Origin: an uncultured Akkermansia sp.
GTDB taxonomy: Bacteria > Verrucomicrobiota > Verrucomicrobiia > Verrucomicrobiales > Akkermansiaceae
Reading direction: 5' to 3'
Assembly: GCA_947588645.1 (NCBI GenBank)
Contig: CANPYO010000002.1
Location: 11,864-75,863, forward strand
Length of the DNA stretch: 64,000 nt
Made by a program: the position numbers and the translations under genes. The notes beneath the pieces were generated by a model. The model saw only the letters and a list, made by a program, of their open reading frames with translations. It was not told the DNA's origin and did not search any database. Below, one piece after another: positions 27,951 through 48,264 of this stretch (the stretch's first letter is position 1; every line of letters starts with the position of its first letter).

Positions 27951-28001
27951 TGCGGTTGCTCTAGGCTGAGGAGTGAGATTCTTTTAATTGCTAACTATTA
28001 G

Positions 28002-30193
<2,192 letters not shown>

Positions 30194-30197
<4 letters not shown>

Positions 30198-30430
30198 GGA
30201 TTTACCTCCTCTGCCGTGTCATCATCGGGAAGTTTTATTTCTTGAGCCGGCGGCGCTGGAGCATTTTGGGGACGGCGAGGCCTGTAGGAGCGGCGGGTGT
30301 TGATGTATTCCTCGTGAGAGTCGCGTGGCTCAAAGCGGAGTTCGGCATTGACAGAGGTATGATACACCATCGTGATCACGATGGCGCTCCCTGTAATCAT
30401 CAGGAACAATGCTCCCAAAAATGACTTCAT
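30194..30430 (-). CDS. Small membrane protein translationally coupled to pdxA
   Basis: N-terminal TM helix; ATGA overlap with the pdxA start; TTGCCA-16-TATAAT promoter at 30467-30440. Confidence 0.55.
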
Positions 30431-30477
30431 CCCTCCACCATTATACACAGCGCCTGCTAATTGGCAAGCACGCAGAC

Positions 30478-30922
30478 CAAGGCAAACGCATTAGAAAATG
30501 CGTTTGCCTATGTACGATGTACGATTTTCGATGTACGATTTGGAAATAGCGCGCGCCTGCGGCGCGGGGATGCTGAGCAGAAGCAAACGGAAATTTGAAA
30601 GCCGTGTGCGGATGTGGTTAGAAAGTGATGGGAATTGCAAAGCGGGAGCAGTCGCGGTGGAAGGTGGAGGTTTCACTTCCATCTCCCATGAAACGCATTA
30701 GAAAATGCGTTTGCCTATGTACGATGTACGATTTTCGATGTACGATTTGGAAATAGCGCGCGCCCGCGGCGCGGGGATGCTGAGCAGAAGCAAACGGAAA
30801 TTTGAAAGCCGTGTGCGGATGTGGTTAGAAAGTGATGGGAATTGCAAAGCGGGAGCAGTCGCGGTGGAAGGTGGAGATTTCACTTCCATCTCCCATGAAA
30901 CGCATTAGAAAATGCGTTTGCT
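30478..30922 (+). repeat. Tandem duplication of a 207-bp MITE-related unit (2 units plus a third hairpin)
   Basis: AAACGCATTAGAAAATGCGTTTG at 30484, 30691 and 30898 (period 207); the two units differ at two positions that I could see. Confidence 0.93.
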
Positions 30923-31028
30923 ATTTATGATTTTGAAATTTTTGCCGCGAAAAAATTGGGAGTTTTTATGCTCCTTTTTTCTGTTTCATATTTCATTTTA
31001 ATTGATTAAGAAGATCTCTGGAGTGCTC

Positions 31029-31214
31029 ATCTCTTTTTGAAAGAGATGTCAAGTGAAAAGAAAAATGTTTTTTCACGGTACGTGAGTTACGAAGATTAGA
31101 AACGACTAAAATGCCACGCGTCAGGTGTGTTTTGCGTAAGTGTGTTTTATTGTATAGAGCTTAATACAAATAGTGTATGATCGCTGAAGGTGTATATCTC
31201 TTTCAAAAAGAGAT
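31029..31214. promoter_or_regulatory. Pair of 19-bp palindromic sites in inverted orientation flanking 148 bp of AT-rich leader
   Basis: ATCTCTTTTTGAAAGAGAT (31029-31047) and ATCTCTTTCAAAAAGAGAT (31196-31214) are exact reverse complements; candidate -10 TATGAT at 31176. Confidence 0.7.
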
Positions 31215-31265
31215 ATGCTGGCGCCTGATCAGGGGATCCCTGCTTCATGATTTTCTCTGTACAAC

Positions 31266-31547
31266 ATGCCTTCTCTCAAAGAAAAGATTCATTTGGAAGT
31301 GGTTATAGACGTCGCCATGGCGGTCGTACTAATCGCGTCGCTATGGGTAGGAGCAGGCTACTATCAACGTGCGGGTCGGTTGGAGAGACGGACGGATCAA
31401 ATATGCGCCCGTATCAAGAGCGTGGAACGCGAATCTGTCAGACTCGATAACAGACGATCCGGTACCAACGCGCAGGAACTGTCGCGTGAAATCGACATGT
31501 TGGAAGACAAAGTAACCGAGCTGAATGCTCTGCTCAGGGAGGAATAA
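31266..31547 (+). CDS. Cassette ORF1-A: N-anchored coiled-coil protein (93 aa)
   Basis: TM VVIDVAMAVVLIASLWVGAGYY followed by a heptad-rich tail. Confidence 0.65.
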   Translation: MPSLKEKIHLEVVIDVAMAVVLIASLWVGAGYYQRAGRLERRTDQICARIKSVERESVRLDNRRSGTNAQELSREIDMLEDKVTELNALLREE

Positions 31548-31551
31548 GCGC

Positions 31552-32295
31552 ATGAAAGAGACAATTCGAGTGGCGTTGAAAATAGCAACCGGCCTGGCCG
31601 CCGCCTGGGTTCTCTGCATGTTCGTGTTCTGCCTGTTTTCAGAGAGAACTCTGCACAGGGCAGAACTACAGCTGCAGGACGCCGCCGCACAGTTGGCCGA
31701 GGAAAAAGACGCACATGAGGAGGATAAAGCTATGGTCAAAGAGCTGCGCAAGATGAGGCTCGATCTCAAAAACGAACTGCGTGTGCTCAAAAAACAGCTT
31801 GCTCTGAAAAAGGGACTCTCGGAGGGGACAGAAATCTCCGCGGAGGAGCTTTCGGATGCCCTCTCAGAACGCGAACGTTCCGAAGCCAAGCATGACCTTT
31901 TGCACGAGAATAGGACGCTGCTGCGCAGAATTGCCGAGTCGCGTTACGCTCTCCGCTCATACAGGACTCCGCCTTGTTTGGAAACTCTCGATGATGAATA
32001 TCAGGAGAGACTGCGGAGCATTCACGGGAAATGGAGAGCGGCCGTGCAATCTCTGCTTAACGTTGCTACCCGAGGAGAGGCGGATAAGGTACTCCGCCTG
32101 CAGGAACAAGTGCGAGAACTCGCCGACTCTGCGGACGTTCTCACAGGGAACACGCAGCTCTATTTTAACCAGGCGGGACGGATAGCCGAAGTCGCCGACG
32201 AGCTTTTGAATGCCGCCACCGCTCGCCAACTTCTGCTTCGTCGATCCGAAGAGTTGGACATCCCCGTCAATCCCGAAATTTCCCCTAACCCCTGA
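31552..32295 (+). CDS. Cassette ORF2-A: N-anchored coiled-coil protein (247 aa)
   Basis: TM IATGLAAAWVLCMFVFCLF followed by long amphipathic helices. Confidence 0.7.
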   Translation: MKETIRVALKIATGLAAAWVLCMFVFCLFSERTLHRAELQLQDAAAQLAEEKDAHEEDKAMVKELRKMRLDLKNELRVLKKQLALKKGLSEGTEISAEELSDALSERERSEAKHDLLHENRTLLRRIAESRYALRSYRTPPCLETLDDEYQERLRSIHGKWRAAVQSLLNVATRGEADKVLRLQEQVRELADSADVLTGNTQLYFNQAGRIAEVADELLNAATARQLLLRRSEELDIPVNPEISPNP

Positions 32296-32301
32296 CTCCA
32301 T

Positions 32302-32556
32302 ATGGATAAATACATTAACATAGGCCTCGTCGTCATTATCATTGCTGCAATTTTAGTCGGCAGGCATTTCTATTCCCAAAAGTCAAACACGGAAATCTCC
32401 ATTGAGAACACGCAAAAGAAGATTGAAGGTATTCGAAGGGAAATCTCCTCGATCAAATCCAAGGTGAACTCCCTTGGCACCCGTCAACTTAATGCCGAGA
32501 AATCCCGCTTGGAAAGGCAACAGGAACAGCTGAAAACGGAACTCGAAAGAATCTGA
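32302..32556 (+). CDS. Cassette ORF3-A: N-anchored coiled-coil protein (84 aa)
   Basis: TM INIGLVVIIIAAILVG followed by a coiled coil. Confidence 0.7.
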   Translation: MDKYINIGLVVIIIAAILVGRHFYSQKSNTEISIENTQKKIEGIRREISSIKSKVNSLGTRQLNAEKSRLERQQEQLKTELERI

Positions 32557-32571
32557 TAACTCATAAAACAC

Positions 32572-33408
32572 ATGGACATTCTACTTAAAATTCTGGCAGT
32601 GCTGACCCTGATCTGGGGAGGCTGGATGTATTTCATAAGTTCCGATGATGAGGCAAAGCTGAGGGGAATTCGTAACGAACTCAAAGTAGCCAAGCAAGAA
32701 TTGGGCGATGCACGAGTTGCTTACGAGGAAGAGAGCAAAAAATGCGAGACTCTCGCAGGGGAGATAGATACCCTAAAGGAGAATGCTCAGGAATTGAGAA
32801 AAGAGATCACCACGAAGAGGGAGGAAAAGAAGAAACTAGCCGCTCAGGAACGTCAAGAACGACTGGAAGCAGAGAGAAAGGCGCGAGAAGAAGCCGCAGA
32901 GGCACGGAGAGAAAAATTAAGGATTCAAAAAGAAAAGGAGCAGGAGAGCAGAATGGCCTTATTGGAACGCGAAAAACAATTTGAAAAAGAGGAAGAAGAA
33001 AAAGAAAAAGCTGAGCAAGCTAAACAGGATGCCGAGTATGAGAAGGAAGAAAGGAAGGAAAGAATTCAACAATTAAAAAGAAGGATAGAAAGTTCGACTC
33101 GTGGACTGGAGAGCTATAGTTCCTGCTCGGCTTACGCTCCTCCGGGCAAAAAAGATTTCGGACAAGTTGAAAAGATGCGGCAGAATTGGACCTCATTTGT
33201 TCGAAGTTGTATTGAAGCAGTCGATAAAGGTGATTCAAAGAGGTTTGAAAGTACCGGAAAGAAACTTCTCAATACGGCGAAAGCTCTGGATAGAATTTGT
33301 GATGGTCGCTACGTAAGTGATGCTACAAATTTCGTTGCTGAAGGCAGAAAAATACTAGGGGCAAAGAAAGAGCTGCAGGAGCTGGAAAAATTGAATAAAA
33401 GCGAGTAA
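32572..33408 (+). CDS. Cassette ORF4-A: N-anchored protein with a charged E/K/R stalk and Cys-containing C-terminal domain (278 aa)
   Basis: TM ILAVLTLIWGGWMYF, TolA-like charged helix, C-terminal domain with three Cys. Confidence 0.75.
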   Translation: MDILLKILAVLTLIWGGWMYFISSDDEAKLRGIRNELKVAKQELGDARVAYEEESKKCETLAGEIDTLKENAQELRKEITTKREEKKKLAAQERQERLEAERKAREEAAEARREKLRIQKEKEQESRMALLEREKQFEKEEEEKEKAEQAKQDAEYEKEERKERIQQLKRRIESSTRGLESYSSCSAYAPPGKKDFGQVEKMRQNWTSFVRSCIEAVDKGDSKRFESTGKKLLNTAKALDRICDGRYVSDATNFVAEGRKILGAKKELQELEKLNKSE

Positions 33409-33409
33409 A

Positions 33410-33474
33410 CGGTGATATCAGTCAATAAGAGCATTTTCTCTGCTGATTGACTTCTCTCAAACGCTTTTGCCCTG
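33410..33474 (+). repeat. Right-hand fragment of the X-type MITE
   Basis: GGTGATATCAGTCAATAAG...CTCTCAAACGCTTTTGCCCTG matches about 1388-1450. Confidence 0.75.
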
Positions 33475-33475
33475 C

Positions 33476-33838
33476 CTAGGGCGCAGGGGAAAAAAATTGC
33501 CAAGCTTGGTAGGCGAGGGTAAGCCGCAGGATGAGGGCGAAAAACATGCCCCATGTGATGGCAAAGGTGGCTTTGCCTCGTGCAGTGAGACGTCGCGAGC
33601 GCACCACGCAGTAAAAAACGATGGCCTGGAGCAGCGCGGAGCAGCAGAGCGCTGCAATGGGAGAAAAATCGAGATGGATGAGGGGCAACGCCAGGGGCCA
33701 GAGAAAGGCGATGGCGCAATCCAAAATGCCATGAATGCCGCCGAGCCACGCGACAACAGCCGATGGCGCCATGACACAAAGAAAGAGCGTAATTCGCGCT
33801 ATTTTGCTGTATCTTACTTCCTGGGTGGGGATGTACAT
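33476..33838 (-). CDS. Small multi-TM hypothetical protein (~120 aa)
   Basis: Three to four hydrophobic segments; start chosen at MYIPT to avoid overlap with uvrB. Confidence 0.5.
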   Translation of the reverse strand: MYIPTQEVRYSKIARITLFLCVMAPSAVVAWLGGIHGILDCAIAFLWPLALPLIHLDFSPIAALCCSALLQAIVFYCVVRSRRLTARGKATFAITWGMFFALILRLTLAYQAWQFFSPAP

Positions 33839-33894
33839 GGGCGTGTTCGTACTATGCCTCAAAATCCCCGTGCTGTCAATGAAGGAATGAGCAG

Positions 33895-36057
33895 ATGTCA
33901 ATCTTCCGACTAGTGACGGATTACACGCCGTCCGGTGATCAGGAGCAGGCCATCGGCAAGCTCTTGAAATCGCTGCGCGCCGGGAATCGTCACCAGTGTT
34001 TGCTGGGGGTGACGGGCAGTGGCAAAACGTTCACGATGGCTAACATCATTGCCCAACAAGACAGGCCGGTGCTGGTGCTCTCGCACAACAAGACGCTCGC
34101 TGCTCAGCTCTACTCTGAATTGAAGGCTTTTTTCCCCCAGAATGCGGTAGAGTACTTTGTATCCTACTTTGATTATTACCAGCCGGAGGCCTACATTGCC
34201 AGCACCGATACGTACATCGAAAAGGACAGCGCCATCAACGAGGAAATTGACCGACTTTGCTTGAATGCGATGCGTTCTCTGCTGCTGAGGAAAGACGTCA
34301 TTGTGGTGGCGAGTGTTTCGTGCATCTACGGACTTGGTTCGCCGGAGGATTATCGCAACCTCACGCTTTCCATCGCTACCGGGCAGGAGATGAACCGGGA
34401 TGCCTTGCTGGTGTGCCTCACGGAGCTTCTTTACGAGCGCAGCGATTATGATTTTCGGCGGGGGACGTTTCGTGTCCGCGGGGATGTGGTGGAGATTTAC
34501 CCCGGTCAGAGTGATGGGGAAGCCATACGGGTGGAGTTTTTCGGAGATGAAATTGATCGTGTTTCACTCATTGATGCCGGCACGGGTCGCGTGCGCGAGA
34601 GGTTGTCGAATTATCTCTTTTTCCCGGTGAAGCAATATGTTTCGGCCCCGGAAAAGCGGGCATCGGCGATGCAGAGCATTCGCGCAGAATTAGCGGAGCG
34701 CGTGGCCTGGCTGGAATCGCAGAACAAGCTCATCGAGGCGCAGCGGCTCAAAATGCGTACGGACTATGATCTGGAGCTTATCAACGAAATCGGCTATTGC
34801 AAGGGCATCGAGAATTACTCGCGCCACCTTGCCGGGCGCGCCCCCGGCAGCACGCCTTCGACACTTCAAGACTACTTCCCGGCAGATCACCTGACGATCA
34901 TTGATGAGTCGCACGCCACAGTGCCGCAGATCGGCGGCATGTACGAGGGAGATCGCTCTCGCAAGCAGGTGCTCATCGATTACGGCTTCCGACTGCCTTC
35001 TGCACTGGACAATCGTCCTCTGCGCTTTGATGAGTTTATGGCCCGCCAAGCGCAGATCGTTTACATGAGTGCGACCCCCGGTCCTTTTGAGTATGTGAAC
35101 TGCGTGCCGGGCAATAAGAGCTTTATCCCGATTTTGAAAGCGAAGCGAGGCAACACGCATGCGCGCAGTGAGAAAGCCAGCCGAGCCATTACGCGTGCGC
35201 CGGACGATTTCCGCGGAGTCTTCTTCCACAATCTGGCAGAACTGCGCGTGCTGCCTCATCCTTCCGGCGCTTCGGTGGAGAGTTTTGATCCCACTCGCCT
35301 GGGGCAAGCCCTCATCGTGGAACAGCTGATTCGCCCCACCGGCTTGCCGGAACCCAAAATTACCATCCTTCCGCTGGAGGGACAAATCGACAAGACGATC
35401 GAGCTGTGCCACGAGCGTGTTCAGGTGCACGAACGCGTGCTGATCACCACCCTTACCAAACGCACGGCGGAGGATCTTACCGATTATTTACGGAAAGTGG
35501 ATTTGCGTGTGGAGTATATTCATGCGGATGTGGATGCCATCGAGCGTGTGGAGATTTTGCGCAAGCTGCGCAGTGGCAAGGTTGACATCCTTGTGGGCAT
35601 CAACCTGCTGCGTGAGGGACTGGATTTGCCGGAGGTTTCGCTTGTCTGCATTTTGGATGCCGATAAAGAGGGATTTCTGCGCAACGAGACCAGCCTGGTT
35701 CAGACTGCCGGCCGCGCTGCCCGCCATGTGCACGGGGAGTGCGTGCTTTTCTGCGATGTGGTTACGGACTCGATACGGGCTCTCGTGGAGGAAAGTGACC
35801 GTCGCCGTAAAATTCAGCTTGCTTACAACAAAGAGCACGGCATTGTGCCACACAGCGTGGCCCGAGCTGACCAGAGTGCATTGCGTCTCTACACTCCGGA
35901 TGAGGAGGAGGAAGTATTGGCAGCGGCAGAGGAGGATGAGACCCCCGAGGTCACCATTGCGCGCTTGGAGAAAGAAATGCGAGAGGCCGCGGCACGTCTG
36001 GATTTCGAGGTGGCTGCTGTCTTGCGCGACCGCATCAAGTCACTTCGAGGTGAGTAA
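33895..36057 (+). CDS. uvrB: Excinuclease ABC subunit B
   Basis: GVTGSGKTFTMAN, YFDYYQPEAY, IDESHATVPQ, SATPG, LREGLDLPEV and C-terminal UVR domain. Confidence 0.97.
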   Translation: MSIFRLVTDYTPSGDQEQAIGKLLKSLRAGNRHQCLLGVTGSGKTFTMANIIAQQDRPVLVLSHNKTLAAQLYSELKAFFPQNAVEYFVSYFDYYQPEAYIASTDTYIEKDSAINEEIDRLCLNAMRSLLLRKDVIVVASVSCIYGLGSPEDYRNLTLSIATGQEMNRDALLVCLTELLYERSDYDFRRGTFRVRGDVVEIYPGQSDGEAIRVEFFGDEIDRVSLIDAGTGRVRERLSNYLFFPVKQYVSAPEKRASAMQSIRAELAERVAWLESQNKLIEAQRLKMRTDYDLELINEIGYCKGIENYSRHLAGRAPGSTPSTLQDYFPADHLTIIDESHATVPQIGGMYEGDRSRKQVLIDYGFRLPSALDNRPLRFDEFMARQAQIVYMSATPGPFEYVNCVPGNKSFIPILKAKRGNTHARSEKASRAITRAPDDFRGVFFHNLAELRVLPHPSGASVESFDPTRLGQALIVEQLIRPTGLPEPKITILPLEGQIDKTIELCHERVQVHERVLITTLTKRTAEDLTDYLRKVDLRVEYIHADVDAIERVEILRKLRSGKVDILVGINLLREGLDLPEVSLVCILDADKEGFLRNETSLVQTAGRAARHVHGECVLFCDVVTDSIRALVEESDRRRKIQLAYNKEHGIVPHSVARADQSALRLYTPDEEEEVLAAAEEDETPEVTIARLEKEMREAAARLDFEVAAVLRDRIKSLRGE

Positions 36058-36230
36058 TGCAGTTGCCATGAGTCAGCAAGACGGCAAACAATTGATGATT
36101 GAGCAAGGTAGTGGAGCCGGCATGGCGTCACTCCGGAGACTTCCCCGCGCAGCGCGCGCGAATTCCTCAAATCGTACATCGTACACCGTACATCGTACAT
36201 AGGCAGACTCCGTCTGCCCCGTGCGGGGAA

Positions 36231-37289
36231 TCAGATGATGCAACGGCTGTTCGTTCGGAAATGGCGCTGACGATCCAGGCTGTACTGCAGAATCGCTTTC
36301 ATCAGTTCACCATGCGACATCCCCCACTTTTCCGCTCCCATGACGAAAGGACCGGACTTGCCGATGTAACAGCAAATGTTCATTTCGATGAGTCGTCGTG
36401 TGCCTGTCGAGGGGGCGATGCGGTAGTCCAGACGGAAATAGTCGACGGGGCCCAGTCCCCGCCATACGGTCATCACGTCCCCGCGTATCTGCTGCTGCAC
36501 CTGCTCGGGTAAATTCGCCCACTCGTAGCCCAAGTGGTCGTGCAGCTTCAAGTCACCGGTGAGGATGCCTTCTTTTTTGTCCGATCCCGGCTTCACAAAT
36601 CCCAGAATTGTCGGTTCCTCCGGACCTCCGACCACGGGCACCGTGTAGTCCGTCCCGGGACAGAATTCTTCGATGAGAGCATCGTGCCCCTGTGCATTGA
36701 GACTGCTCGCGCAGTCAACCGCCGCTTGCCAGCTGTCGGCTATGTTGGCCTCTGTGATGCAGTCAGACGCGGCGCCGAATCGTTTTTTCACGAAGAAACG
36801 TTTGACGTGGGCGAGTTGTTGCGGCGGAGCGGAGGGCGGTTCCGAAAGCTTGCTGAGCGTCACTCCCGGAGCCACGGGGAGATTCAGTCCTGTGAACGCC
36901 AGTTTCATGAGCCACTTATCCTCCGCCACGGCGCGAATATTCGGGGAAGCTCCCAAGTAGGGAATGCGCGCAAACTCACAATATGACGAGATAAAAATTT
37001 CCGGATTTTCAATGGGGATGCGATTGAGCAGTGAGAAGACGTAATCCACGTTGCCCTTTGCTTGCAGGATGGCGTATGGTTTCGAGCTGGAGTAAACTTC
37101 GCACCCGATGTCCTGAAGGAGTCGGAAAATGCTGTGGTGGTATTGCGGGTAGCCGCCATTGCCTTTGTAAGGCTTCACGCTGAAGTCAGGACCATCCGGC
37201 GCGTATGGCGCCATATACAGCACACGCAACGGCTCTCCGTGATCATTCACCAATTTCTCCGGAATTCGTGGAAATGTTTTCGGTATCAT
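36231..37289 (-). CDS. ATP-grasp ligase, D-Ala-D-Ala ligase-like but atypical
   Basis: IPYLGAS...AEDKWLMK, ALIEEFCPGTDYTV, RLDYRI and IEMN ATP-grasp elements; Ddl signature motifs are missing. Confidence 0.7.
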   Translation of the reverse strand: MIPKTFPRIPEKLVNDHGEPLRVLYMAPYAPDGPDFSVKPYKGNGGYPQYHHSIFRLLQDIGCEVYSSSKPYAILQAKGNVDYVFSLLNRIPIENPEIFISSYCEFARIPYLGASPNIRAVAEDKWLMKLAFTGLNLPVAPGVTLSKLSEPPSAPPQQLAHVKRFFVKKRFGAASDCITEANIADSWQAAVDCASSLNAQGHDALIEEFCPGTDYTVPVVGGPEEPTILGFVKPGSDKKEGILTGDLKLHDHLGYEWANLPEQVQQQIRGDVMTVWRGLGPVDYFRLDYRIAPSTGTRRLIEMNICCYIGKSGPFVMGAEKWGMSHGELMKAILQYSLDRQRHFRTNSRCII

Positions 37290-37415
37290 GGCACCTATTC
37301 TACCGACACGTCCTCCTTGGGGCAAGCCGTTAGATTTCCTTTTTGTGTCCGCAGCACACGCGCTGATTTATCCAAGGAATCGACTCGAAGTCGTTTTCCT
37401 TGCCAGCACGCTCGC

Positions 37416-38690
37416 TCAGTGAGGCACGGCGAGAGTCTGGGTGCGGTCGGGGCCAACGCCAACAGAGCCGACAGGGCAGCCGACGATTTCTCCGAACCGT
37501 TTGACATAGGATTGGCAGCTAGCCGGGAGCTGATCCCAAGATGTGCACTTCGTTGTATCTTGCATCCAGCCGGGCAGGGTTTCGTAGATGGGCACGCACT
37601 GCTCCCAATCATCGATAAGGGCAGGGGGGTATTCCAGCGTACGTTCACCCAATTTGTAGCCGGTGCAGATTTTGATTTCCCTGCAGGCATCCAGACCATC
37701 GAGGTTGGTCATGGCCATCTCATTAAAGCCGTTGAACATGGCGGAAAAGCGTAGCACCACACCATCTGCCCAACCGCAGCGACGCGGTCGGCCGGTGGTG
37801 GCGCCGAATTCGCGACCCAGCCCATGCAAGTAATCGGCAAGCTGCGCATCTTCGGAGACGAAGGGACCGGCGCCTACACGAGTGGTGTAGGCTTTGCACA
37901 CACCGATAATTTTGTGGATGCCCGTGGGCGGTACACCGGAGCCGGTACAGCAACCGCCGGCGCTGGTGTTGGAAGAGGTGACATAGGGGTAGGTGCCGAA
38001 ATCCACATCCAGCATGGCTCCTTGCGCTCCCTCAAAAAGGATGCTCTTACCGGCTCCTGCCGCGCGATTCAGGACGGGAATCGTGTCTGTGACATGCGCG
38101 CGCAGCTCGTCCGCAGCTTGCATGACGGCACGCAGGTTTTCTTGCGGATCAGAGGCGGGGTAGCCGAGACGCACCAGCTCCTCGTTGGCGGTCGCAATTC
38201 GGTCGGTGAGAACAGATTTCAAATGATCCGGGTTGACGAGATCAGCCATGCGGATACCGACGCGGCGCACCTTGTCTGCGTAAGTGGGGCCGATGCCCTG
38301 TTTTGTGGTGCCAATTTTGTGCTCGCCAAGAGCTTCCTCCTGCGCGGCATCAATTTCTTTGTGGATGGGCAGAACGACGTGGGCGCGGTCGGAGAGCATC
38401 AGATTCTGAGGAGTGATTTCCACGCCGAGACCGCGCAAATAGACCATTTCCTCTACGAGGGAAGTCGGGTTGATGACGACGCCGTTACCGATGATATTTA
38501 ACTTGCCGGGCCAGAGGATGCCGGAAGGCACGAGATGCAGCACGTATTTCTTACCGTGGGCGATGACGGTGTGACCGGCGTTGCTGCCTCCTTGGCTGCG
38601 CACCACAATATCTGCATCTTCGGTGAGAAAATCAATCACCTTGCCTTTGCCTTCATCTCCCCACTGGGAGCCAATCACGAGTGTGTTCAT
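37416..38690 (-). CDS. purA: Adenylosuccinate synthetase
   Basis: QWGDEGKGKVID, GGSNAGHT, GIGPTYADK, FEGAQG and GATTGRPRRCGW motifs. Confidence 0.98.
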   Translation of the reverse strand: MNTLVIGSQWGDEGKGKVIDFLTEDADIVVRSQGGSNAGHTVIAHGKKYVLHLVPSGILWPGKLNIIGNGVVINPTSLVEEMVYLRGLGVEITPQNLMLSDRAHVVLPIHKEIDAAQEEALGEHKIGTTKQGIGPTYADKVRRVGIRMADLVNPDHLKSVLTDRIATANEELVRLGYPASDPQENLRAVMQAADELRAHVTDTIPVLNRAAGAGKSILFEGAQGAMLDVDFGTYPYVTSSNTSAGGCCTGSGVPPTGIHKIIGVCKAYTTRVGAGPFVSEDAQLADYLHGLGREFGATTGRPRRCGWADGVVLRFSAMFNGFNEMAMTNLDGLDACREIKICTGYKLGERTLEYPPALIDDWEQCVPIYETLPGWMQDTTKCTSWDQLPASCQSYVKRFGEIVGCPVGSVGVGPDRTQTLAVPH

Positions 38691-38695
38691 AATGT

Positions 38696-39853
38696 TTAAG
38701 CTTGATATTTGCCGGCCTTGAAGTCTTCAATCAGCCCGATGAATTCGCCAAAGAAATAGGTGGCATCTTTGGGACCGGGAGCGGCTTCGGGGTGATATTG
38801 CACGCAGAAAATAGGAAGCGTTTTGTGGCGTAGTCCTTCCACTGTACCGTCGTTGAGGTTGATGTGGGTGACTTCTGCTTCCGGCGGCAGGGACTCCGGA
38901 TCCACGGCAAAACCGTGATTTTGGGATGTAATGGCTACTTTACCGGTACGCAGATCTTTGACGGGTTGATTGCCGCCGCGATGACCGAATTTCAGCTTGA
39001 AGGTACGTCCGCCAAAGGCCAGACCGAGCAGCTGGTGCCCCAGGCAGATGCCAAAAATGGGCAGCTTCCCGATGAGTTTCTGAATTTCTGCGTAAATGTC
39101 CGGCAGAGCTGAGGGGTCGCCCGGCCCATTGGAAAGGAAGACGCCGTCCGGCTGCAGGGAGAGAACTTCTTCCGCCTTGGTGTGGGCAGGCACCACTGTC
39201 ACATCAAAACCATCGCGCCGCAGGCACCGCAAGATGTTACGCTTGATCCCGAAATCGAATGCCACGATGCGGTAGCGGATGGGTGGAAGCTCAGCGTAGT
39301 TGGAGAGGTCGCCGGTGGTTTTGTTCGGTAGTTTCCAGTCGCGGGACTCATCCTCCCAGTGGTACGCCTCCGGGGTGGATACCTCGGACACGAAGTCACT
39401 TCCTGCCATGGGGGGAGAGGCTTGAGCAGCGGCCACGGCCTGCTCAGCGGTCAGTTCCGTGGTGAGACATGCCCGCTGGGCGCCTTTTGTGCGCAACAGC
39501 TTCGTGAGCTTCCGCGTGTCAATTCCTTCGATGCCCGGGATGCCGTGGCGTGCCATCCAGTCAGGCAGGGATTCGCGGCAGCGCCAGTTAGAATGCAACT
39601 GCGCCACCTCCGCAACGGCAAAGCCTCGTACTTGGGGGGCTGCCGACTCGTTGTCCTCCTCACACACACCGTAGTTGCCGATAAGCGGGTAGGTCATTGT
39701 GACGATTTGTCCGCGGTAAGAGGGGTCTGTAAGTACCTCCTGGTAACCGGTCATCGAGGTGTTGAAGCAAGCCTCACCGGTCACGGTACCGGCAGCTCCG
39801 AAGGACTTCCCCTCGAATATCGTACCGTCTTCTAGCGCAAGTATAGCTTTCAT
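38696..39853 (-). CDS. carA: Carbamoyl-phosphate synthase small subunit
   Basis: [31 protein letters not shown] and [10 protein letters not shown] motifs. Confidence 0.98.
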
Positions 39854-39984
39854 CCCATTACGTGTAGCCGAGGGACTTTAGCAAATCGGGCGGTGAAAAG
39901 CAAGACAAATCCGCACATCGGCAAGCAATCTTATTTGAAGCGTGCGCCGACGACGATCTTGAGGATTGAATGCCACTGTTTTAC

Positions 39985-40200
39985 CACTCATGTCCCCATA
40001 AAATCATAACTGGGCTCATTCAACCCATTCCTCTTGCGTTTCCAACAGACAAAGGAAGTAAGCCCGGCAAGAATCATGATGCCCGCTTGTTGCCGTGATT
40101 TTTGATACGTACAAGCGGTGATATCAATCAATGAGAGTCTTTTCTCTGCTGATGGACTTCCCTCAAATGCGTCTGTCCCGGAGGTCTGCCTGTTGGGAAA
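39985..40200 (+). repeat. Composite P-family/X-module repeat
   Basis: First ~90 bp match 12493-12580, then module X (as in 1344-1450) with a degenerate right TIR ending at 40180, then CTGCCTGTTGGGA as in the other P elements. Confidence 0.7.
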
Positions 40201-40323
40201 ATATTCGTCATCTTTCGGAGTTAGCTTGCAAATGGGAGCGGATCGTGTATATAATGGTCGGGAGAACGTAGGGGAAGCGCTCACTTGGAATGCGACCCCG
40301 CATGGCGTCAACCCAATATCACC

Positions 40324-40662
40324 ATGAGTAACGAAGAAAAAGATCCGAATGTTGTGCCGGCTCCCGCGCCGGAGCCTGCTCCGTCCAGTGACACTCAAAA
40401 GCGTTTGAGCACGGCTCGCGAGTTTGCAAGCGAGCAGTACGAAAAGCTTCGCCGTGCAACGGCTGACCAAATGGAAAATGTGCGCCGTTACACACGAGAT
40501 GCGCGGCGTCAACTTCACGAAGGTTGGGATGCCACGCGCAATAAGGCGAAGGACCTGCACCACGCGGGAGAGGAGTACGTGAAGGCAAACCCGACCACGA
40601 GCGTGCTCGGTGCGCTGGGGGTTGGAATTGTGCTGGGGTTGCTTTTGGGCAGCCGCCGTTGA
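40324..40662 (+). CDS. DUF883/ElaB/YqjD family tail-anchored protein
   Basis: YVKANPTTSVLGALGVGIVLGLLLGSRR C-terminal anchor; promoter TTGCAA...TATAAT near 40226-40255. Confidence 0.85.
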   Translation: MSNEEKDPNVVPAPAPEPAPSSDTQKRLSTAREFASEQYEKLRRATADQMENVRRYTRDARRQLHEGWDATRNKAKDLHHAGEEYVKANPTTSVLGALGVGIVLGLLLGSRR

Positions 40663-40681
40663 TTTTTACACCGCGCATCCC

Positions 40682-41116
40682 ATGGTTGAGAGCCAACACG
40701 CTGAGAAGACGGTCACCCTGCGCGAGCAGGGGGGCGCCGTGCTGGGCGGTGTGCGCGAGAGTGTCCTGCACGCCACCCGGCATGTGGAAGCTTTGGCTGA
40801 GTTGCTGCAGGTTGAGCTCAACGAGTATGGAAGAAGACAAGCCAGGCGGCTTACTGCGGCCTTGGTGGGGGTAGCGTTACTGTTATGTGCCTACCTCATG
40901 CTATGCGTATTTGCCGTGCTGGTGCTTATGCCCGTTCTGAAGCCGATATGGGCGCCCGTACTGGCTGTGGTGATTTTTAATGCCCTGGTCGGTATGGTAG
41001 CGCTGCTGGTGAGCAAATGTGGAAAGCCCGGCGGTGTTGCTCCGGAGACTGTCAAAGAACTTAAAAACGACCTCGAATGCGTCAAACTCTACCTGAAAGG
41101 AAAAGAGAACTCCTGA
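40682..41116 (+). CDS. YqjE-like (holin superfamily III) membrane protein
   Basis: ELLQVELNE motif, two TMs, PETVKELKND; typical position after a DUF883 gene. Confidence 0.75.
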   Translation: MVESQHAEKTVTLREQGGAVLGGVRESVLHATRHVEALAELLQVELNEYGRRQARRLTAALVGVALLLCAYLMLCVFAVLVLMPVLKPIWAPVLAVVIFNALVGMVALLVSKCGKPGGVAPETVKELKNDLECVKLYLKGKENS

Positions 41117-41487
41117 TGCGCGCAGCCGAATCGCGCGTGGCGGTGGTGGAGAGCATAGAATCCACTGCCGGCACGGTTCGCAGTGTGTACGGGCGGTTCA
41201 GTGTGCCGAGCTCTTATGTGAAAATGGGGCTTGGCGTAGGTGCAGGTTTGGTGGGAGCGTGGCTGATGAGACGCGTGTTTTCCGCAGGGTCGCGTCGTGT
41301 GTCAGCTGCGTTGAATACCCCGACGCATAGCACGAGCGGGGCGCTTGTGTTGTTGCTCGTGCAGGTGGCATCGGCTCTGCTGCTTCCGTGGGTGCGCGAG
41401 CGGGTACACGGTTCAGATTGGGGAAATGTGGTCAAGCGCATGCACCCTTCTCACATATTCTTCCGTTGGTTAGGGTTGGAGAAATAG
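41116..41487 (+). CDS. YqjK-like hypothetical membrane protein
   Basis: TGATG coupling; completes a yqjD-E-K-like trio. Confidence 0.5.
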   Translation: MRAAESRVAVVESIESTAGTVRSVYGRFSVPSSYVKMGLGVGAGLVGAWLMRRVFSAGSRRVSAALNTPTHSTSGALVLLLVQVASALLLPWVRERVHGSDWGNVVKRMHPSHIFFRWLGLEK

Positions 41488-41490
41488 ACC

Positions 41491-41859
41491 ATGACTCCCA
41501 AAACGTACAAAATCGGCGATGCTGACATACGCCCGTGGGGGCGTTGGGTTGTGCTGGATTTGACTCCTCAGCTCGTCGTAAAAAAACTTTTTATCGCGCC
41601 GGGAAAACGCATTTCTTTGCAACTTCACAGATTTCGCTCGGAGCGTTGGATTATGATGCAGGGCGAGGCTGTGGTTCAGAAAAATGACGAGAAAATCGTT
41701 CTTAAACCAGGCGATGGCGTGCTCATCCCTCAAAATACCTTGCATCGCCTCTCCAACGAGAGCGAACAGGAAGTCCTTCTACTCGAGGTTCAGTTTGGCG
41801 ACTTGCTCAGCGAGGATGATATAGAACGCCTTGAGGACGATTACGGAAGAAACGACTAG
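41491..41859 (+). CDS. Cupin, mannose-6-phosphate isomerase type II C-terminal-like
   Basis: RPWG, ISLQLHRFRSERW, HRLSN and EVQFGDLLSEDDIERLEDDYGR. Confidence 0.9.
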   Translation: MTPKTYKIGDADIRPWGRWVVLDLTPQLVVKKLFIAPGKRISLQLHRFRSERWIMMQGEAVVQKNDEKIVLKPGDGVLIPQNTLHRLSNESEQEVLLLEVQFGDLLSEDDIERLEDDYGRND

Positions 41860-41891
41860 AGTTGAAAACTCCGCAGGAATTTAAAGAAATT

Positions 41892-42817
41892 ATGTTATTT
41901 ACCCCCCCCTAGTATCTGTTATTCAAGTTTGTCAAGATCTGATTGACGGCGTCGTTTGCGTTAATCGGGATTCAGATACCCAGCGGTGGGAAAAATACTG
42001 TTTGCGGGCGAAGGGAATCATCGAACCGGAGAAGTTATACCGGCTGAGCGCCGTAGAGGGAGTGCAGTTGCCGGGTTATGGGGAAAGGCCGTGGTTTACA
42101 GAACGCACCGGCGCGCGAAGAGAACATTGGGCTCATGGGGGCGGGTGTTTGCTGTCGCACCGCAATGCGATACGTCTTGCGCAGGAGAAGGAATGGCGCA
42201 ACGTACTCATCATGGAAGATGATGCTGTGCCGGAGGTAGAAGAAGGAGCTATGCGAGCGTTGGCGCGAGCCTTGAGAGAATTGCGGGGCAAATGGGTGCT
42301 CTATCTCGGGTATTCTGAGCGCCCCCGTCCTTGTGGGCGCGCACTGTGGCAGCAAGGAGGGTATTCTCTATGGCAGATCAGCGGGGCTATTGCTCTGCAC
42401 GCTTACATCGTGCCCCGGAGCATGTATGCGGCAATTCTGGCGCATCTTCCTCAGGAGGATTCTCAGGTGTGGTCTTGGATGGCTCGGCACAGAGCCATTG
42501 ACAACTGGTACAGGAATGAGGTTTCCGAGTGGCCGGGGGTGCGTGTACATACAATACTGCCGCATCTGTATTACCAGGAGGCTTTTTATGATGCGAGTGG
42601 AGTGGCAGGATCTGCCAATGAGCTGGGAAAGAGTGTCAAACTCAGTTCGCGTACGGTATATCCACGGGCGTGCTGGGGGCTATTTACGCTTGGACACTTT
42701 CTCTTTGCGCCGTTCAGAAGATTTGCCGTACGCATGAATACTCTGCGCACATATTACCTCTGCCGTTGCTTTGGCTTTCGAGGGCAGAAAAAAAGGAAAC
42801 GTGCGAAATTGCAATAA
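41892..42817 (+). CDS. Glycosyltransferase family 25, currently frameshifted at a C8 tract (phase-variable candidate)
   Basis: GCLLSHRNAI...VLIMEDDA GT25 motifs; the N-terminal motif VVCVNRDSDTQRW lies upstream of the first in-frame TTG; ATG 41892 joins the frame only with C9. Confidence 0.75.
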
Positions 42818-42880
42818 AGGACACTAATTAGACTTGAAATCCGTTCACTTTCATGTCATATTAGCGCGACCGCACAGAGC

Positions 42881-44803
42881 ATGTCAGATCATAAAGAACG
42901 CAAAACACTTGAAGAACGCAACCAGGCAAGTGAGCTGGAGAGGCTTCGTCACTCCTGCGCGCACGTCTGCGCCACGGCGATTTGTCGCATATGGCCTCAG
43001 GCGCAACTGGCGGCTGGCCCGGCTGTTGAGAACGGCTTTTATTACGATATTGAACTCGACCACAACATCTCATCGGATGAGTTTGCCCTCATCGAGGAAG
43101 AAATGAAAAAAGTGGTAAAGGAGAATGCGCCGTTTGAGAAGACCGTAGTGAGTCGCTCTGAGGCTCTGCACATGGCAGAGACCGGCGAATTAGGCAGCAT
43201 TGGGCCGCGCGGCGTGCCTTCTAAGTTCAAATTGGATCTGCTTTCCCGCATCCCGGAAGATGAGCCCATTTCCATCTATCGCAATGGTGACTTTACCGAC
43301 TTGTGCGCCGGTCCGCACGTGGCTCGTACAGGAAATTGCAAGGCTTTTAAGATTATGAGCGTGGCCTCTTCCTATTACCAAGGGGATGCCAACGGACCAC
43401 GGCTGCAGCGCGTGTACGGCACGTGCTTTCCGAACCGCACTCAGCTGGATGAGCACCTGGCTCGACTGGAGGAGGCAAAAAGGCGTGACCACCGCAAGCT
43501 CGGTCGAGAACTCGGACTCTTTGCTATTGATGAGATGGTGGGGCAGGGCTTGGTTCTCTGGAAACCAAAGGGCGCCATTATCCGCCGGGAGCTGCAGAAA
43601 TTCATCACCGAGGAGTTGGATCGCATCGGCTATTCACAGGTGTTTACCCCCCACCTTGGGAAGCTGGATTTGTACATGACCAGCGGTCACTGGGAACATT
43701 ACAAAGAAAGCCAATTCCCTCCCATTCCGGATCCGGATGACTTCAAGAAACTGCGTGACGAGCACGCCACTTGTGCCGATCTTTTCAACGCGCTTGATAC
43801 CCGCACGATCACGGGTTTCATGCTCAAACCCATGAATTGCCCGCACCACATCCGTATCTACGCAAACGAGCCGCACTCTTATCGCGACTTGCCCGTGCGT
43901 CTCGCTGAGTTCGGCACGGTGTACCGTTGGGAACAGAGCGGTGAGCTGGGTGGCATGACTCGCGTGCGCGGCTTCACCCAAGATGATGCCCATATCTTCT
44001 GCCGTCCGGATCAGATTAAGCAGGAGGTTCAGCAGTGCATCGGCATCGTCAAGCTTATTCTTGGAACCTTGCAAATGACCGATTTTCGCGTGCGTCTCTC
44101 TCTGCGCGACAGAGATTACTCCGATCCCAAGTACGTCGGGAGTCACGAAAATTGGGAGCTTGCGGAGAATGCCCTGCGCGGGGTCCTGCAGGAGGAAGGT
44201 TTTGACTTTGTGGAGGCTGAAAATGAAGCCGCTTTCTACGGACCGAAAATCGATTTCATTGTGCGCGATGTCATTGGTCGCGATTGGCAGCTTGGCACCG
44301 TCCAAGTGGATTACAACCTGCCGGAACGCTTCGAGCTCACATACACCGGTGCGGACAATAAACCTCACCGTCCCGTTATGATACATCGCGCTCCGTTTGG
44401 CTCCATGGAGCGGTTCACGGGTTTGCTCATCGAGCATTTTGCCGGCAAATTCCCCACGTGGCTTGCACCGGAGCAGGTGCGTGTGCTCCCCATTTCTGAG
44501 AAGGTACTCGACTTTGCGCACGAGGTGCGCGCTCAACTGGCCGATGCCGGCGTGCGCGTACGCATGGACGATGCTCCGGACAAGATTGGCGCTAAAATTT
44601 GCAATGCGCGCATGGATCGCGTGCCTTACATGCTCGTTGTCGGGCAGCGCGAGGCGGAACAGGGACTCGTCTCTGTGCGCCACAGGGATTTGGATGTCAT
44701 CGGAACTATGAAACTGGCTGACTTCTGCAGCGCTCTGCAGCGCGAGACAGAGCAGCGCCTTATTGCTCCCGAGCTTCAACCTTCCGCGCCACATGCGGAG
44801 TAA
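42881..44803 (+). CDS. thrS: Threonine--tRNA ligase
   Basis: LRHSCAH, DLCAGPHV, RDHRKLG, KPMNCPHH, RVRGFTQDDAH and MIHRAPFGSMERF motifs. Confidence 0.98.
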   Translation: MSDHKERKTLEERNQASELERLRHSCAHVCATAICRIWPQAQLAAGPAVENGFYYDIELDHNISSDEFALIEEEMKKVVKENAPFEKTVVSRSEALHMAETGELGSIGPRGVPSKFKLDLLSRIPEDEPISIYRNGDFTDLCAGPHVARTGNCKAFKIMSVASSYYQGDANGPRLQRVYGTCFPNRTQLDEHLARLEEAKRRDHRKLGRELGLFAIDEMVGQGLVLWKPKGAIIRRELQKFITEELDRIGYSQVFTPHLGKLDLYMTSGHWEHYKESQFPPIPDPDDFKKLRDEHATCADLFNALDTRTITGFMLKPMNCPHHIRIYANEPHSYRDLPVRLAEFGTVYRWEQSGELGGMTRVRGFTQDDAHIFCRPDQIKQEVQQCIGIVKLILGTLQMTDFRVRLSLRDRDYSDPKYVGSHENWELAENALRGVLQEEGFDFVEAENEAAFYGPKIDFIVRDVIGRDWQLGTVQVDYNLPERFELTYTGADNKPHRPVMIHRAPFGSMERFTGLLIEHFAGKFPTWLAPEQVRVLPISEKVLDFAHEVRAQLADAGVRVRMDDAPDKIGAKICNARMDRVPYMLVVGQREAEQGLVSVRHRDLDVIGTMKLADFCSALQRETEQRLIAPELQPSAPHAE

Positions 44804-44844
44804 GATCTCCTTCTATCTGTCAAAACCAACACACCACACTACAC

Positions 44845-45498
44845 GTGCCACTCCCACCAAAGAAAGCGAACAGTCCCGCGCGTAACAACCGTCGCGATCA
44901 ATCCAACAAAGTCTCCCAGACCCGAGTCAACGAACGCATCCGCGCTCCACGTGTCCGAGTTGTTACGGCAGAGGGCGTCCAGCTGGGCATAGTAGCCACG
45001 CGAGATGCCTTGGTCAAAGCGAAGGAATTGGGGCTGGATCTTGTGGAAGTGGCGCCGAACGCCGATCCTCCTGTCTGCCGCATTATCGATTATGGCAAGT
45101 ACAAATACATGCAGGCCAAGCAGCAGAAAAACAGCAAGTCGAAGGTCGTTCGCATGAAGGAGGTGAAACTCCGCATTGGTACGGATGTCAATGATTACAA
45201 CGTGAAAATGGGGCGTACCGAGCAGTTTCTTGATCATGGGCACAAAGTGCGGTTCCAACTGCGCTTCAAAGGCCGCGAAAATGCTCACCAGCAAATGGGG
45301 CTTGATGTGATGGCCAAAGTTGCGGAGGATATGAAGACTATGGCGCGTGTGGATCAACCGGCCAAGCTTGTTGGCAACACGGTGAGCATGGTTCTCTCTC
45401 CTCTCCCCAATGGACAGCGCGTCAAGAAATTCAAAAAGTACGAGGAAGACGATTTCGATACAGAATCTGCCGAGTTTGACGCCAAAGAAGAAGGCTGA
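44845..45498 (+). CDS. infC: Translation initiation factor IF-3
   Basis: VNERIRAPRVRVV, LDLVEVAP...PPVCRIIDYGKYKY and FKGRE; follows thrS. Confidence 0.95.
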   Translation: MPLPPKKANSPARNNRRDQSNKVSQTRVNERIRAPRVRVVTAEGVQLGIVATRDALVKAKELGLDLVEVAPNADPPVCRIIDYGKYKYMQAKQQKNSKSKVVRMKEVKLRIGTDVNDYNVKMGRTEQFLDHGHKVRFQLRFKGRENAHQQMGLDVMAKVAEDMKTMARVDQPAKLVGNTVSMVLSPLPNGQRVKKFKKYEEDDFDTESAEFDAKEEG

Positions 45499-45534
45499 GA
45501 GGCCAAAATCGACAACGTTTTCTCATTGTAATTC

Positions 45535-45600
45535 GTGGCGCCGTCAGGCGCCACCCTCGTACATTGTAAATGGCAAACGCATTTCCTAATGCGGCCTTTG
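45535..45600 (-). repeat. Degenerate MITE left-end fragment
   Basis: GGCAAACGCATTTCCTAATGCG hairpin plus heptamer remnants and the GCGCCGTCAGGCGCCA module also seen near 16444. Confidence 0.55.
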
Positions 45601-45694
45601 TCCGCAGAATCTGAAGAAGCACGCACGCAGCGGCGCATCAAACTCGTCTGATTCGTGCCCTCCACATCGCCACAGATTGGCAGGGTCGCTTTGT

Positions 45695-46534
45695 CTAAGA
45701 CTCGCTTTTATTCAATTTCTCCAGCTCCTGCAGCTCTTTCCATACCCCTAGTATTTTTCTGCCATCAGCAACGAAATTTGTAGCATCACTTACGTGGTGA
45801 CCATCACATATTCTATCCAGTGCTCTCGCTGTATTGAGAAGTTTCTTCCCGGTCTTTTCAAACGTATTTGAATCACCTTTATCGACTGCTTCAATACAAC
45901 TTCGAACAAATGAGGTCCAATTTTGCCGCATCTTTTCAACTTGTCCGAAATCTTTTTTGCCCGGAGGAGCGGAGGCCGAGCAGAAACTATAGTCCTCCAG
46001 TCTACGAGTCCAACTTTCTATCCTTCTTTTTAATTGTTGAATTCTTTCCTTCCTTTCTTCCTTCTCATACTCAGCAGCCTGTTCTTTTTCTTTTTGTTCT
46101 TCCTCTTTTTCAAATTGTTTTTCGCGTTCCAATAAGGCCATTCTGTTCTCCTGCTCCTGCTCCTGCTCCTTTTCTTTTTGAATCCTTAATTTTTCCCTCC
46201 GTGCCTCTGCGGCTTCTTCTCGCGCCTTTCTCTCTGCTTCTAATTGTTCTTGACGTTCCTGAGCGGCTAGTTTCTTCTTTTCCTCTCTCTTCGCGGTGAT
46301 CCCTTTTCTCAATTCCTGAGCATTCTCCTTTAGGGTATCTATCTCCCCTGCGAGAGTCTCGCATTTTTTGCTCTCTTCCTCGTAAGCAGCTCGAGCATCG
46401 CCCAATTCTTGCTTGGCTACCTTGAGCTCGTTACGAATTCCCCTCAGCTTTGCCTCATCATCGGAGCTTTTGAAGTACATCCAGCCCCCCCAGATCAGGG
46501 TCAGCATCGCCAGCATTTTAAGTAGAATGTCCAT
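45695..46534 (-). CDS. Cassette ORF4-B (279 aa), diverged paralogue of ORF4-A
   Basis: Same architecture; many substitutions and indels relative to 32572-33408. Confidence 0.75.
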   Translation of the reverse strand: MDILLKMLAMLTLIWGGWMYFKSSDDEAKLRGIRNELKVAKQELGDARAAYEEESKKCETLAGEIDTLKENAQELRKGITAKREEKKKLAAQERQEQLEAERKAREEAAEARREKLRIQKEKEQEQEQENRMALLEREKQFEKEEEQKEKEQAAEYEKEERKERIQQLKRRIESWTRRLEDYSFCSASAPPGKKDFGQVEKMRQNWTSFVRSCIEAVDKGDSNTFEKTGKKLLNTARALDRICDGHHVSDATNFVADGRKILGVWKELQELEKLNKSES

Positions 46535-46549
46535 GGCTTTTATGAGTTA

Positions 46550-46804
46550 TCAGATTCTTTCGAGTTCCGTTTTCAGTTGTTCCTGCTGCTTTTCCAAGCG
46601 GGTTTTTTCGGCATTAAGTTGACGGATGCCAAGGGAGTTCACTTTGGATTTGATCGAGGAGATTTCCCTTCGAATTCCTTCAATCTTCTTTTGCGTATTT
46701 TCAATGGAGATTTCCGTGTTTGACTTTTGGGAATAGAAATGTCTGCCGACTAAAATTGCGGCAATGATAATGACGACGAGACCGATGTTAATGTATTTAT
46801 CCAT
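46550..46804 (-). CDS. Cassette ORF3-B (84 aa)
   Basis: Three amino-acid differences from ORF3-A. Confidence 0.7.
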   Translation of the reverse strand: MDKYINIGLVVIIIAAILVGRHFYSQKSNTEISIENTQKKIEGIRREISSIKSKVNSLGIRQLNAEKTRLEKQQEQLKTELERI

Positions 46805-46817
46805 ATGGGGTCAGGGG

Positions 46818-47561: not shown

Positions 47562-47565
47562 GCGC

Positions 47566-47847: not shown

Positions 47848-48264
47848 GTTGTACAGAGAAAATCATGAAGCAGGGATCCCCTGATCAGGCGCCAGCATAT
47901 CTCTTTTTGAAAGAGATATACACCTTCAGCGATCATACACTATTTGTATTAAGCTCTATACAATAAAACACACTTACGCAAAACACACCTGACGCGTGGC
48001 ATTTTAGTCGTTTCTAATCTTCGTAACTCACGTACCGTGAAAAAACATTTTTCTTTTCACTTGACATCTCTTTCAAAAAGAGATGAGCACTCCAGAGATC
48101 TTCTTAATCAATTAAAATGAAATATGAAACAGAAAAAAGGAGCATAAAAACTCCCAATTTTTTCGCGGCAAAAATTTCAAAATCATAAATAGCAAACGCA
48201 TTTTCTGATGCGTTTCATGGGAGATGGAAGTGAAACCTCCATCTTCCACCGCAGGCGAGCATAC

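Follow-up and report, generated by a model that had tools for sequence, protein, structure and literature searches.

The window analysed here is a 64,000-nt stretch of DNA from a metagenome-assembled genome (MAG) of an uncultured Akkermansia sp. (GenBank assembly GCA_947588645.1, contig CANPYO010000002.1, positions 11,864 to 75,863 of the forward strand). At positions 31266-33408 it carries four co-directional open reading frames (ORFs) with intergenic gaps of 4, 6 and 15 nt. An original prediction, made from the letters alone, had described them as an operon of N-anchored coiled-coil proteins that is present in two copies, belongs to no recognised family and travels as a unit, and the tight spacing and the four protein lengths given there were confirmed. 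In the following this cassette is called copy A, its small (S) and large (L) products are designated S1, L1, S2 and L2, and the second copy, which does exist and lies inverted further downstream, is called copy B:

31266-31547, plus strand: ORF1 (S1), 93 amino acids (aa), an N-terminal membrane helix with an invariant Asp15, then a coil of ~57 residues
31552-32295, plus strand: ORF2 (L1), 247 aa, a membrane helix, a ~58-residue coil, a variable linker, a second helix and a three-helix-bundle head
32302-32556, plus strand: ORF3 (S2), 84 aa, a membrane helix and a ~60-residue coil, paralogue of ORF1
32572-33408, plus strand: ORF4 (L2), 278 aa, a membrane helix (LIWGGWMY), a heptad coil, an ER/K-rich charged helix of variable length and a three-helix-bundle head
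45695-47847, minus strand: copy B of the cassette, with ORF4 at 45695-46534, ORF3 at 46550-46804, ORF2 at 46818-47561 and ORF1 at 47566-47847

The four ORFs are real genes under purifying selection. Compared with the cassettes of five relatives, all of them show a ratio of nonsynonymous to synonymous substitution rates (dN/dS) of 0.10-0.25, with 0.18-0.23 for the short ORF1, and ORF4 is the most divergent gene of the cassette. An alternative ATG at 31525 would extend ORF2 to 256 aa, but the start at 31552 is favoured because it agrees with the gene calls in relatives and has a GGAGG 9 nt upstream. The A-rich composition and the AT-rich leader noticed originally were also found, with an AT skew of the coding strand of up to +0.52 and a GC content of the leader of 0.375-0.425 versus ~0.56. 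An Rfam search of leader and cassette gave no match.

As described before, all four proteins have a single N-terminal hydrophobic stretch which is followed by charged helical sequence. AlphaFold2 models built on the family alignments predict one helix (residues 3-182) and a three-helix bundle (196-277) for ORF4, with a predicted local distance difference test score (pLDDT) of 88, and helices 2-88 and 97-136 followed by a bundle at 148-235 for ORF2 (pLDDT 82). The head of ORF2 carries strongly conserved motifs in the family alignment. Residues 91-180 of ORF4 are 57-63% charged and 17-30% hydrophobic, which is the composition of ER/K single alpha-helices (SAH), and by this composition together with the continuous predicted helix the segment would qualify as an SAH; its length differs among homologues. 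The long charged stalk that had been assigned to ORF4 was retained, but the cysteines of the supposed Cys-containing head, although present, vary across homologues, and a conserved disulfide head was rejected on this ground.

Two features escaped the original prediction, namely the organisation of the operon in paralogous pairs and, most likely, an invertible promoter upstream of it. ORF2 and ORF4 are paralogous over their full length (hhalign 97.6%, E 4.8e-12), as are ORF1 and ORF3 with each other (hhalign 93.9%, E 1.5e-7), and the operon therefore consists of two "small + large" (S+L) pairs in tandem. The best-conserved regions of the proteins are the membrane helices, including LIWGGWMY in ORF4, Asp15 in ORF1 and INI...GGRYYY in ORF3, which points to specific helix-helix packing beyond mere anchoring. 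Furthermore, the extramembrane coil of the small proteins (~57-63 residues) equals in length the membrane-proximal heptad segment of the large partner, and this match suggests that S and L proteins pair. With the tight spacing and coupling of the genes, the conserved membrane helices and the matching coils, the hetero-oligomer proposed at the outset is plausible.

The family is a true orphan, and here the first reading of the locus stood up to library, profile and structure searches, none of which gave a known system. Searches of Pfam, NCBIfam, PADLOC and PHROGs with the single proteins, and of Pfam with all members of the alignments, returned coiled-coil noise only; in PADLOC this consisted of partial coil matches to segments of JetC, LmuB and ZorA at E values of at least 5e-4. 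A sequence-profile search of the PDB gave nothing below E 0.1, and Foldseek found nothing below E 0.05 and generic helical bundles only, when the AlphaFold2 models of ORF2 and ORF4 were compared with the PDB and that of ORF2 with BFVD. When 1.84 billion representative proteins were searched exhaustively by HMMER with the ORF2 profile, five matches were recovered, which are the family itself or fragments of it, plus one distant large-type protein. Among the viral contigs of IMG/VR there was no relative, with one 48-residue coil match only.

The scores that come closest to known families remain low. DivIC reached 15.3 bits against a cut-off of 28.9, FtsL 11.6-12.1 against 42-50, and the best TolA profile had an E value of 0.4, while S1 and S2 matched several Rz-like i-spanin PHROGs and NCBIfam LysB weakly (E ~3e-3). 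These matches to Rz-like spanins, DivIC/FtsL, PspB and TolA reflect the common anchor-plus-coil layout and none is near a curated threshold. Descent from a phage lysis or spanin module that was domesticated by the host would account for the Rz-like matches and for the membrane anchor and coiled coil which the small proteins share with the i-spanin Rz. We regard such a remnant as very improbable, since the matches are sub-threshold, the cassette is chromosomal and under purifying selection, the neighbourhood holds neither an outer-membrane lipoprotein partner (o-spanin, a lipobox ORF) nor a holin, endolysin or other phage gene, and the family was not found in viral contigs.

The cassette is lineage-specific and restricted to a rabbit-gut Akkermansia clade. 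ORF4 falls into 19 clusters only among 5.8 billion proteins, all named genomic matches are uncultured Akkermansia MAGs from rabbit ('Lapin') gut, and most sequencing runs in which the locus occurs are metagenomes of rabbit gut. Of the 154 species of the genus, 10 carry the family, at one to five copies per genome, and 144 lack it. About nine other species have ORF1-ORF2-ORF3-ORF4 in this order at 40-70% identity, and the cassette was found in at least four chromosomal contexts; the genes thus do co-occur in other genomes and move as a unit, as had been supposed. In the contexts below and in what follows, loci carry labels of the form L0xx (L006 is contig C82 of the own genome, G000) and sequencing runs carry X-numbers:

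H+-PPase, cassette, murA: the commonest context
ftsA-ftsZ, cassette
pgk, cassette, infC: the context of copy B and of L011
pdxA, cassette, uvrB: the context of copy A

A third, diverged S+L pair (~115 aa and 245 aa) stands alone on another contig of the own genome (G000:C82, L006 5375-7117), L022 and L024 have additional S2-L2 pairs, and L021 has a second copy of ORF4. The separate pair and the extra S2-L2 pairs indicate that the S+L pair is the basic unit of the family.

Upstream of ORF1 the following elements were identified, together with their counterpart at copy B:

31029-31047, unstranded: left 19-bp inverted repeat ATCTCTTTTTGAAAGAGAT, the exact reverse complement of 31196-31214
31048-31195, unstranded: putative 148-bp invertible segment, whose left end has a -35-like TTGACA on the minus strand at 31047-31052
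31196-31219, plus strand: right 19-bp repeat (31196-31214) and a fixed -10-like TATGCT (31214-31219)
47899-48084, minus strand: switch of copy B, assembled in the putative OFF orientation like that of copy A (repeats 47899-47917 and 48066-48084)

This pair of repeats, whose starts lie 167-168 bp apart, precedes ORF1 in all 13 cassette loci for which upstream DNA is available, and the geometry of the window, in which the right repeat ends 52 nt before ORF1, is common to these 13 loci. One end of the segment has a -35-like hexamer (TTGACA, TGGACA or TGTACA). A -10-like TAnnCT adjoins the gene-proximal repeat at every one of the 13 loci and stays on the gene side while the -35 end flips. Between collinear flanks, the segment is reverse-complemented in L015 relative to L023 (one MAG), and it is also reverse-complemented in L007 and L008 (other species) relative to the window, so that both orientations are observed among copies and species rather than among cells of one population. 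Inversion would give the window the promoter TTGACA-17 nt-TATGCT, placed 46 nt ahead of ORF1; where the -35 end faces the operon, the corresponding elements are TTGACA-17-TAGACT in L015 and TTGACG-17-TATACT in L007. Both copies in the window were assembled with the -35 end pointing away from the genes, the putative OFF state. In L007 (6360-6550) and L008, the gene-proximal repeat is degenerate in its inner half (4 mismatches) and the orientation is the putative ON, and these switches may be locked ON.

The repeats are not confined to the cassette. About 20 like repeat pairs occur in the own genome in mixed orientations, with spacings of 157-169 bp, mostly 165-169 bp, and of 224 bp in one case (examples are C3:39888, C11:468, C12:22334, C19:12776, C49:18216 and C71:8707). 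They share the motif ATCTCTTT-NNN-AAAGAGAT, a -35-like hexamer at one inner end and a -10-like element in one outer flank, and TAnnnn hexamers adjoin the gene-proximal repeat at most of the other switches of this genome. Judged by these shared sequence features, the cassette most likely stands behind an invertible promoter that belongs to a genome-wide switch family. The neighbours of the switches include, among others, five exported 'MKLHLP...' proteins, each of ~1100 aa, along with GT2 glycosyltransferases and a Sel1 protein, and about five to six of the ~20 switches lie next to genes for glycosyltransferases and giant exported proteins. On metagenome contigs the repeat pair recurs at many more loci, where the sequence it encloses is unrelated. 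Most switches of the own genome were assembled in the putative OFF state, and one locus of the family adjoins a Y-family polymerase gene. A switch-controlled membrane protein on C55 was considered as a relative of the cassette proteins and dismissed, its sequence being unrelated.

With regard to the enzyme, no serine recombinase (PF00239) was found in the own genome. Tyrosine recombinases gave 12 matches there, which correspond to eleven genes because two matches are the halves of a single frame. Candidate invertases among them are about seven paralogues with lengths of 333-357 aa, and a tyrosine-recombinase gene of 435 aa lies ~1 kb past the right end of the window.

A comparable system is known from A. 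muciniphila, where ~32 invertons with 17-bp repeats ~157 bp apart lie near autotransporter/PEP-CTERM proteins and the cps1 capsule locus (PMC11892184, PMC13343947); they correspond to 'group 138' of the former study, and the cps1 capsule switch is described in the latter. The two systems agree in that ~150 bp of intergenic DNA lie between inverted repeats of only 17-19 bp, that a single repeat motif recurs at dozens of switches in a genome, that both orientations are observed, and that the switches adjoin giant exported, autotransporter or PEP-CTERM-type proteins and glycan genes. The A. muciniphila repeats have the motif CGGATT..AATCCG of Jiang et al. (2019), in the words of the passage of PMC13343947 that quotes it. 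The switches described here differ in that their repeat is ATCTCTTT-NNN-AAAGAGAT (motif ATCTCTTTNNNAAAGAGAT) and does not match the published one, that their cargo includes a protein family absent from A. muciniphila, and that flipping at the cassette is deduced from the comparison of copies and not from reads. Animal-associated Akkermansia clades thus appear to possess a counterpart of the A. muciniphila switch regulon that differs in its repeat motif, and this counterpart would also control a family for which no relative was detectable among 1.84 billion representative proteins.

Mucus colonisation by Akkermansia, a gut symbiont that has been studied intensively, is affected by its phase-variable surface, which includes capsule and autotransporter-like proteins. 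Our preferred interpretation, which we hold tentatively and with somewhat less than even confidence, is that the operon is phase-variable, that its products form a hetero-oligomeric complex of helical stalks anchored in the inner membrane, and that it is part of a switchable envelope repertoire. The operon would encode two paralogous pairs of single-pass inner-membrane proteins, S1/L1 and S2/L2, in which the membrane helices and the ~60-residue coil would join each small protein to the part of its large partner's coil that lies next to the membrane. The large proteins would extend a rigid helical stalk of ~15 nm (L1) or ~20-24 nm (L2, partly as an ER/K-type single helix), capped by a three-helix-bundle head that is most likely periplasmic. 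Expression would be all-or-none and most likely reversible, with the -35 element on the 148-bp segment and the -10 element in the fixed flank, and a tyrosine recombinase presumably flips the segment, as at the ~20 sister switches. The complex would in this way be a phase-variable envelope component that changes the architecture of the periplasm or the outer envelope, and the changed envelope may alter interactions with phages, host factors and neighbouring cells.

The evolution of the family, by module duplication, relocation and allele swapping, resembles that of surface-variation genes, and the swap of ORF4 alleles described below, the copy number of 1-5 and the presence in 10 of 154 species are typical of variable envelope genes. 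Should the complex indeed alter envelope architecture or phage sensitivity, it would represent a new class of phase-variable envelope component and, with four small genes and one switch, a compact model for such components.

The topology is deduced from the charges around the membrane helices. In the alignments, L1 has 3-4 Lys/Arg ahead of its helix and L2 a net acidic stretch behind it, and this distribution favours N-in/C-out, which would place stalk and head in the periplasm. The periplasmic stalk proposed originally is accordingly supported by L1 and L2 and opposed by the charges of S1 (see below), whereas the surface stalk offered with it is not upheld, as proteins anchored in the inner membrane of a diderm are unlikely to be exposed on the surface.

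Several observations weigh against the phase-variable stalk complex. S1 is acidic before and Arg-rich after its membrane helix, which fits N-out/C-in; with such an orientation the coil of S1 would lie on the opposite side of the membrane from L1 and the pairing model would be broken. The variation in stalk length of ORF4 argues against a strict periplasmic ruler. The promoter elements were assigned by consensus alone, and no minority orientation was seen across the middle of the segment in runs X1, X2, X5 and X6, as judged from assembled contigs, which drop rare variants. In the RNA run X18, exact contigs cover parts of ORF2 and ORF4 at a low depth that equals that of neighbouring genes; contigs for eno, thrS and infC within 28000-47990 were not found (pgk lies outside that stretch), and the pattern looks like DNA carry-over.

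The charges of S1 would be expected if coils and heads faced the cytoplasm and served as a membrane-associated scaffold, for example a regulator of division or morphology like FtsB/FtsL, EzrA or PspB/PspC. The small proteins resemble FtsB, FtsL and DivIC as bitopic proteins with a membrane helix and a ~60-residue coil that likely form a heteromer, the weak sub-threshold matches to DivIC, FtsL and PspB go in the same direction, and the cassette in L018 adjoins ftsA-ftsZ. We nevertheless consider this role unlikely. The basic N-terminus of L1 and the acidic post-helix segment of L2 fit C-out, and all profile matches are far under the curated cut-offs. Unlike core division proteins, which are universal and single-copy, the cassette genes are absent from 144 of the 154 species, duplicated and switch-controlled. 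The ftsZ neighbourhood is moreover a single site: ftsA-ftsZ lie upstream in L018 only, where the cassette is divergently oriented, and L020 from another MAG shares only the genes downstream of the L018 site.

The large proteins might instead act as TolA/TonB-like transducers and the small ones as their TolR/ExbD-like partners, which would use the TolQ/ExbB stators of the cell to reach an outer-membrane target. The architecture is indeed that of TolA of the Tol-Pal system, with a single N-terminal anchor, a long charged alpha-helical domain that spans the periplasm and a small C-terminal domain, and the membrane helices are highly conserved, including the invariant Asp15 of S1. On the other hand, sequence and fold show no similarity to TolA, TonB, TolR or ExbD (TolA E 0.4, Foldseek none), the head is an all-helical three-helix bundle, an SHLS-type motif is missing, and no stator gene (tolQR or exbBD) lies in or near the cassette. 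The cassette also differs from TolA in being phase-variable, clade-specific and paired with a small coiled-coil protein, and we judge a transducer of this type to be distinctly improbable. A bolder form of the preferred interpretation, to which we give only a minor chance, is an undescribed phase-variable machine that spans the periplasm: its stalks would deliver the helical-bundle heads to peptidoglycan or outer membrane and serve there as a tether or transducer in the manner of TolA, or else keep phages from entering, and interchangeable S2-L2 modules would confer strain specificities.

A function against phages, which had been suggested for the cassette at first, would make it a superinfection-exclusion module whose stalks keep phage genomes out or conceal a receptor in the envelope; an arms race would then be reflected in the phase variation and in the swapping of ORF4. 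Small membrane-anchored exclusion proteins are known in general, and the cassette is phase-variable, multi-copy, clade-restricted and relocating, with a distal gene that is replaced by divergent alleles. However, PADLOC models gave nothing beyond coiled-coil noise, the neighbours are housekeeping genes and not a defence island, the family is missing from the viral contigs of IMG/VR save for the 48-residue coil match, and dN/dS of 0.1-0.55 throughout gives no sign of positive selection. Phage defence is therefore unsupported, and we hold an exclusion module to be unlikely compared with the switchable envelope complex outlined above.

The two copies in the window lie in inverted-repeat arms, 30861-33406 and 45700-48252, which are 93-99% identical, and the synonymous divergence (dS) between copy A and copy B is 0 for ORF1, 0.034 for ORF2, 0.233 for ORF3 and 0.124 for ORF4. 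The ratio of nonsynonymous to synonymous differences per site (pN/pS) in ORF4 is 0.55 for the stalk, 0.47 for the head and 0.20 for the N-terminal part, in no case above 1, and positive selection on the head was not seen. Both copies are represented in rabbit-gut runs, among which the source sample of the MAG may be found. At 33240-33310, all 11 alternative letters in runs X1, X5 and X6 are those of copy B; they make up ~40% of the depth in X1 and X5 and are the sole letters in X6 (14.1 of 14.1). In L011, a close relative with the cassette at the pgk|infC site, ORF1-ORF2 have a dS of ~0.05 to the window, while ORF4 has a dS of 1.24 and 56% identity. From this contrast it follows that the distal module was swapped by recombination. 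The allele replacement comprises L011:7732-8846 versus window positions 32302-33408, with the breakpoint around ORF3.

Pieces of a miniature inverted-repeat transposable element (MITE) had been noted as borders of the cassette, and for copy A they were recovered on both sides:

30477-30897, unstranded: upstream of copy A, MITE left end with a 207-nt unit present twice in tandem (repeat families D2 and D3; blastn against the complete MITE at 1216-1450)
33401-33474, unstranded: MITE right end abutting ORF4 of copy A (repeat family D5), which provides the TAA stop codon

Copy B has small MITE pieces only. The homology between copy A and copy B at the 3' side halts exactly at the last codons of ORF4, and in copy B and the relatives ORF4 is one residue longer (…KSES) than in copy A. 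No 10-bp target duplication was found around the whole copy A unit, the 10 bp outside the two MITE ends being different, and MITE pieces are frequent in the intergenic DNA of this genome. A composite MITE transposon was for these two reasons rejected as an established fact, and transposition of the cassette by MITEs, as implied by the earlier description, is no more than a possibility.

Some further observations concern the same elements. The 207-nt MITE-derived unit upstream of copy A forms a perfect tandem duplication at 30484-30897, and the metagenome depth at the MITE ends runs into the thousands, the element being very abundant in rabbit-gut samples. The S+L pair on C82 has MITE copies on both sides and genes for Sel1-repeat proteins and a transporter of the major facilitator superfamily as neighbours; a switch repeat pair was not detected upstream of it. 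In L015, one MAG has a second cassette, probably in tandem, whose ORF2 (1884-1982) is cut to 32 aa, with ORF1, ORF3 and ORF4 intact. Finally, the inverted 2.5-kb copies in the window enclose 12.3 kb of core genes (33409-45694; uvrB, purA, carA, GT25, thrS, infC), which homologous recombination between the cassettes could invert, and on the pgk side the gene order of L011 is the same as in the window.

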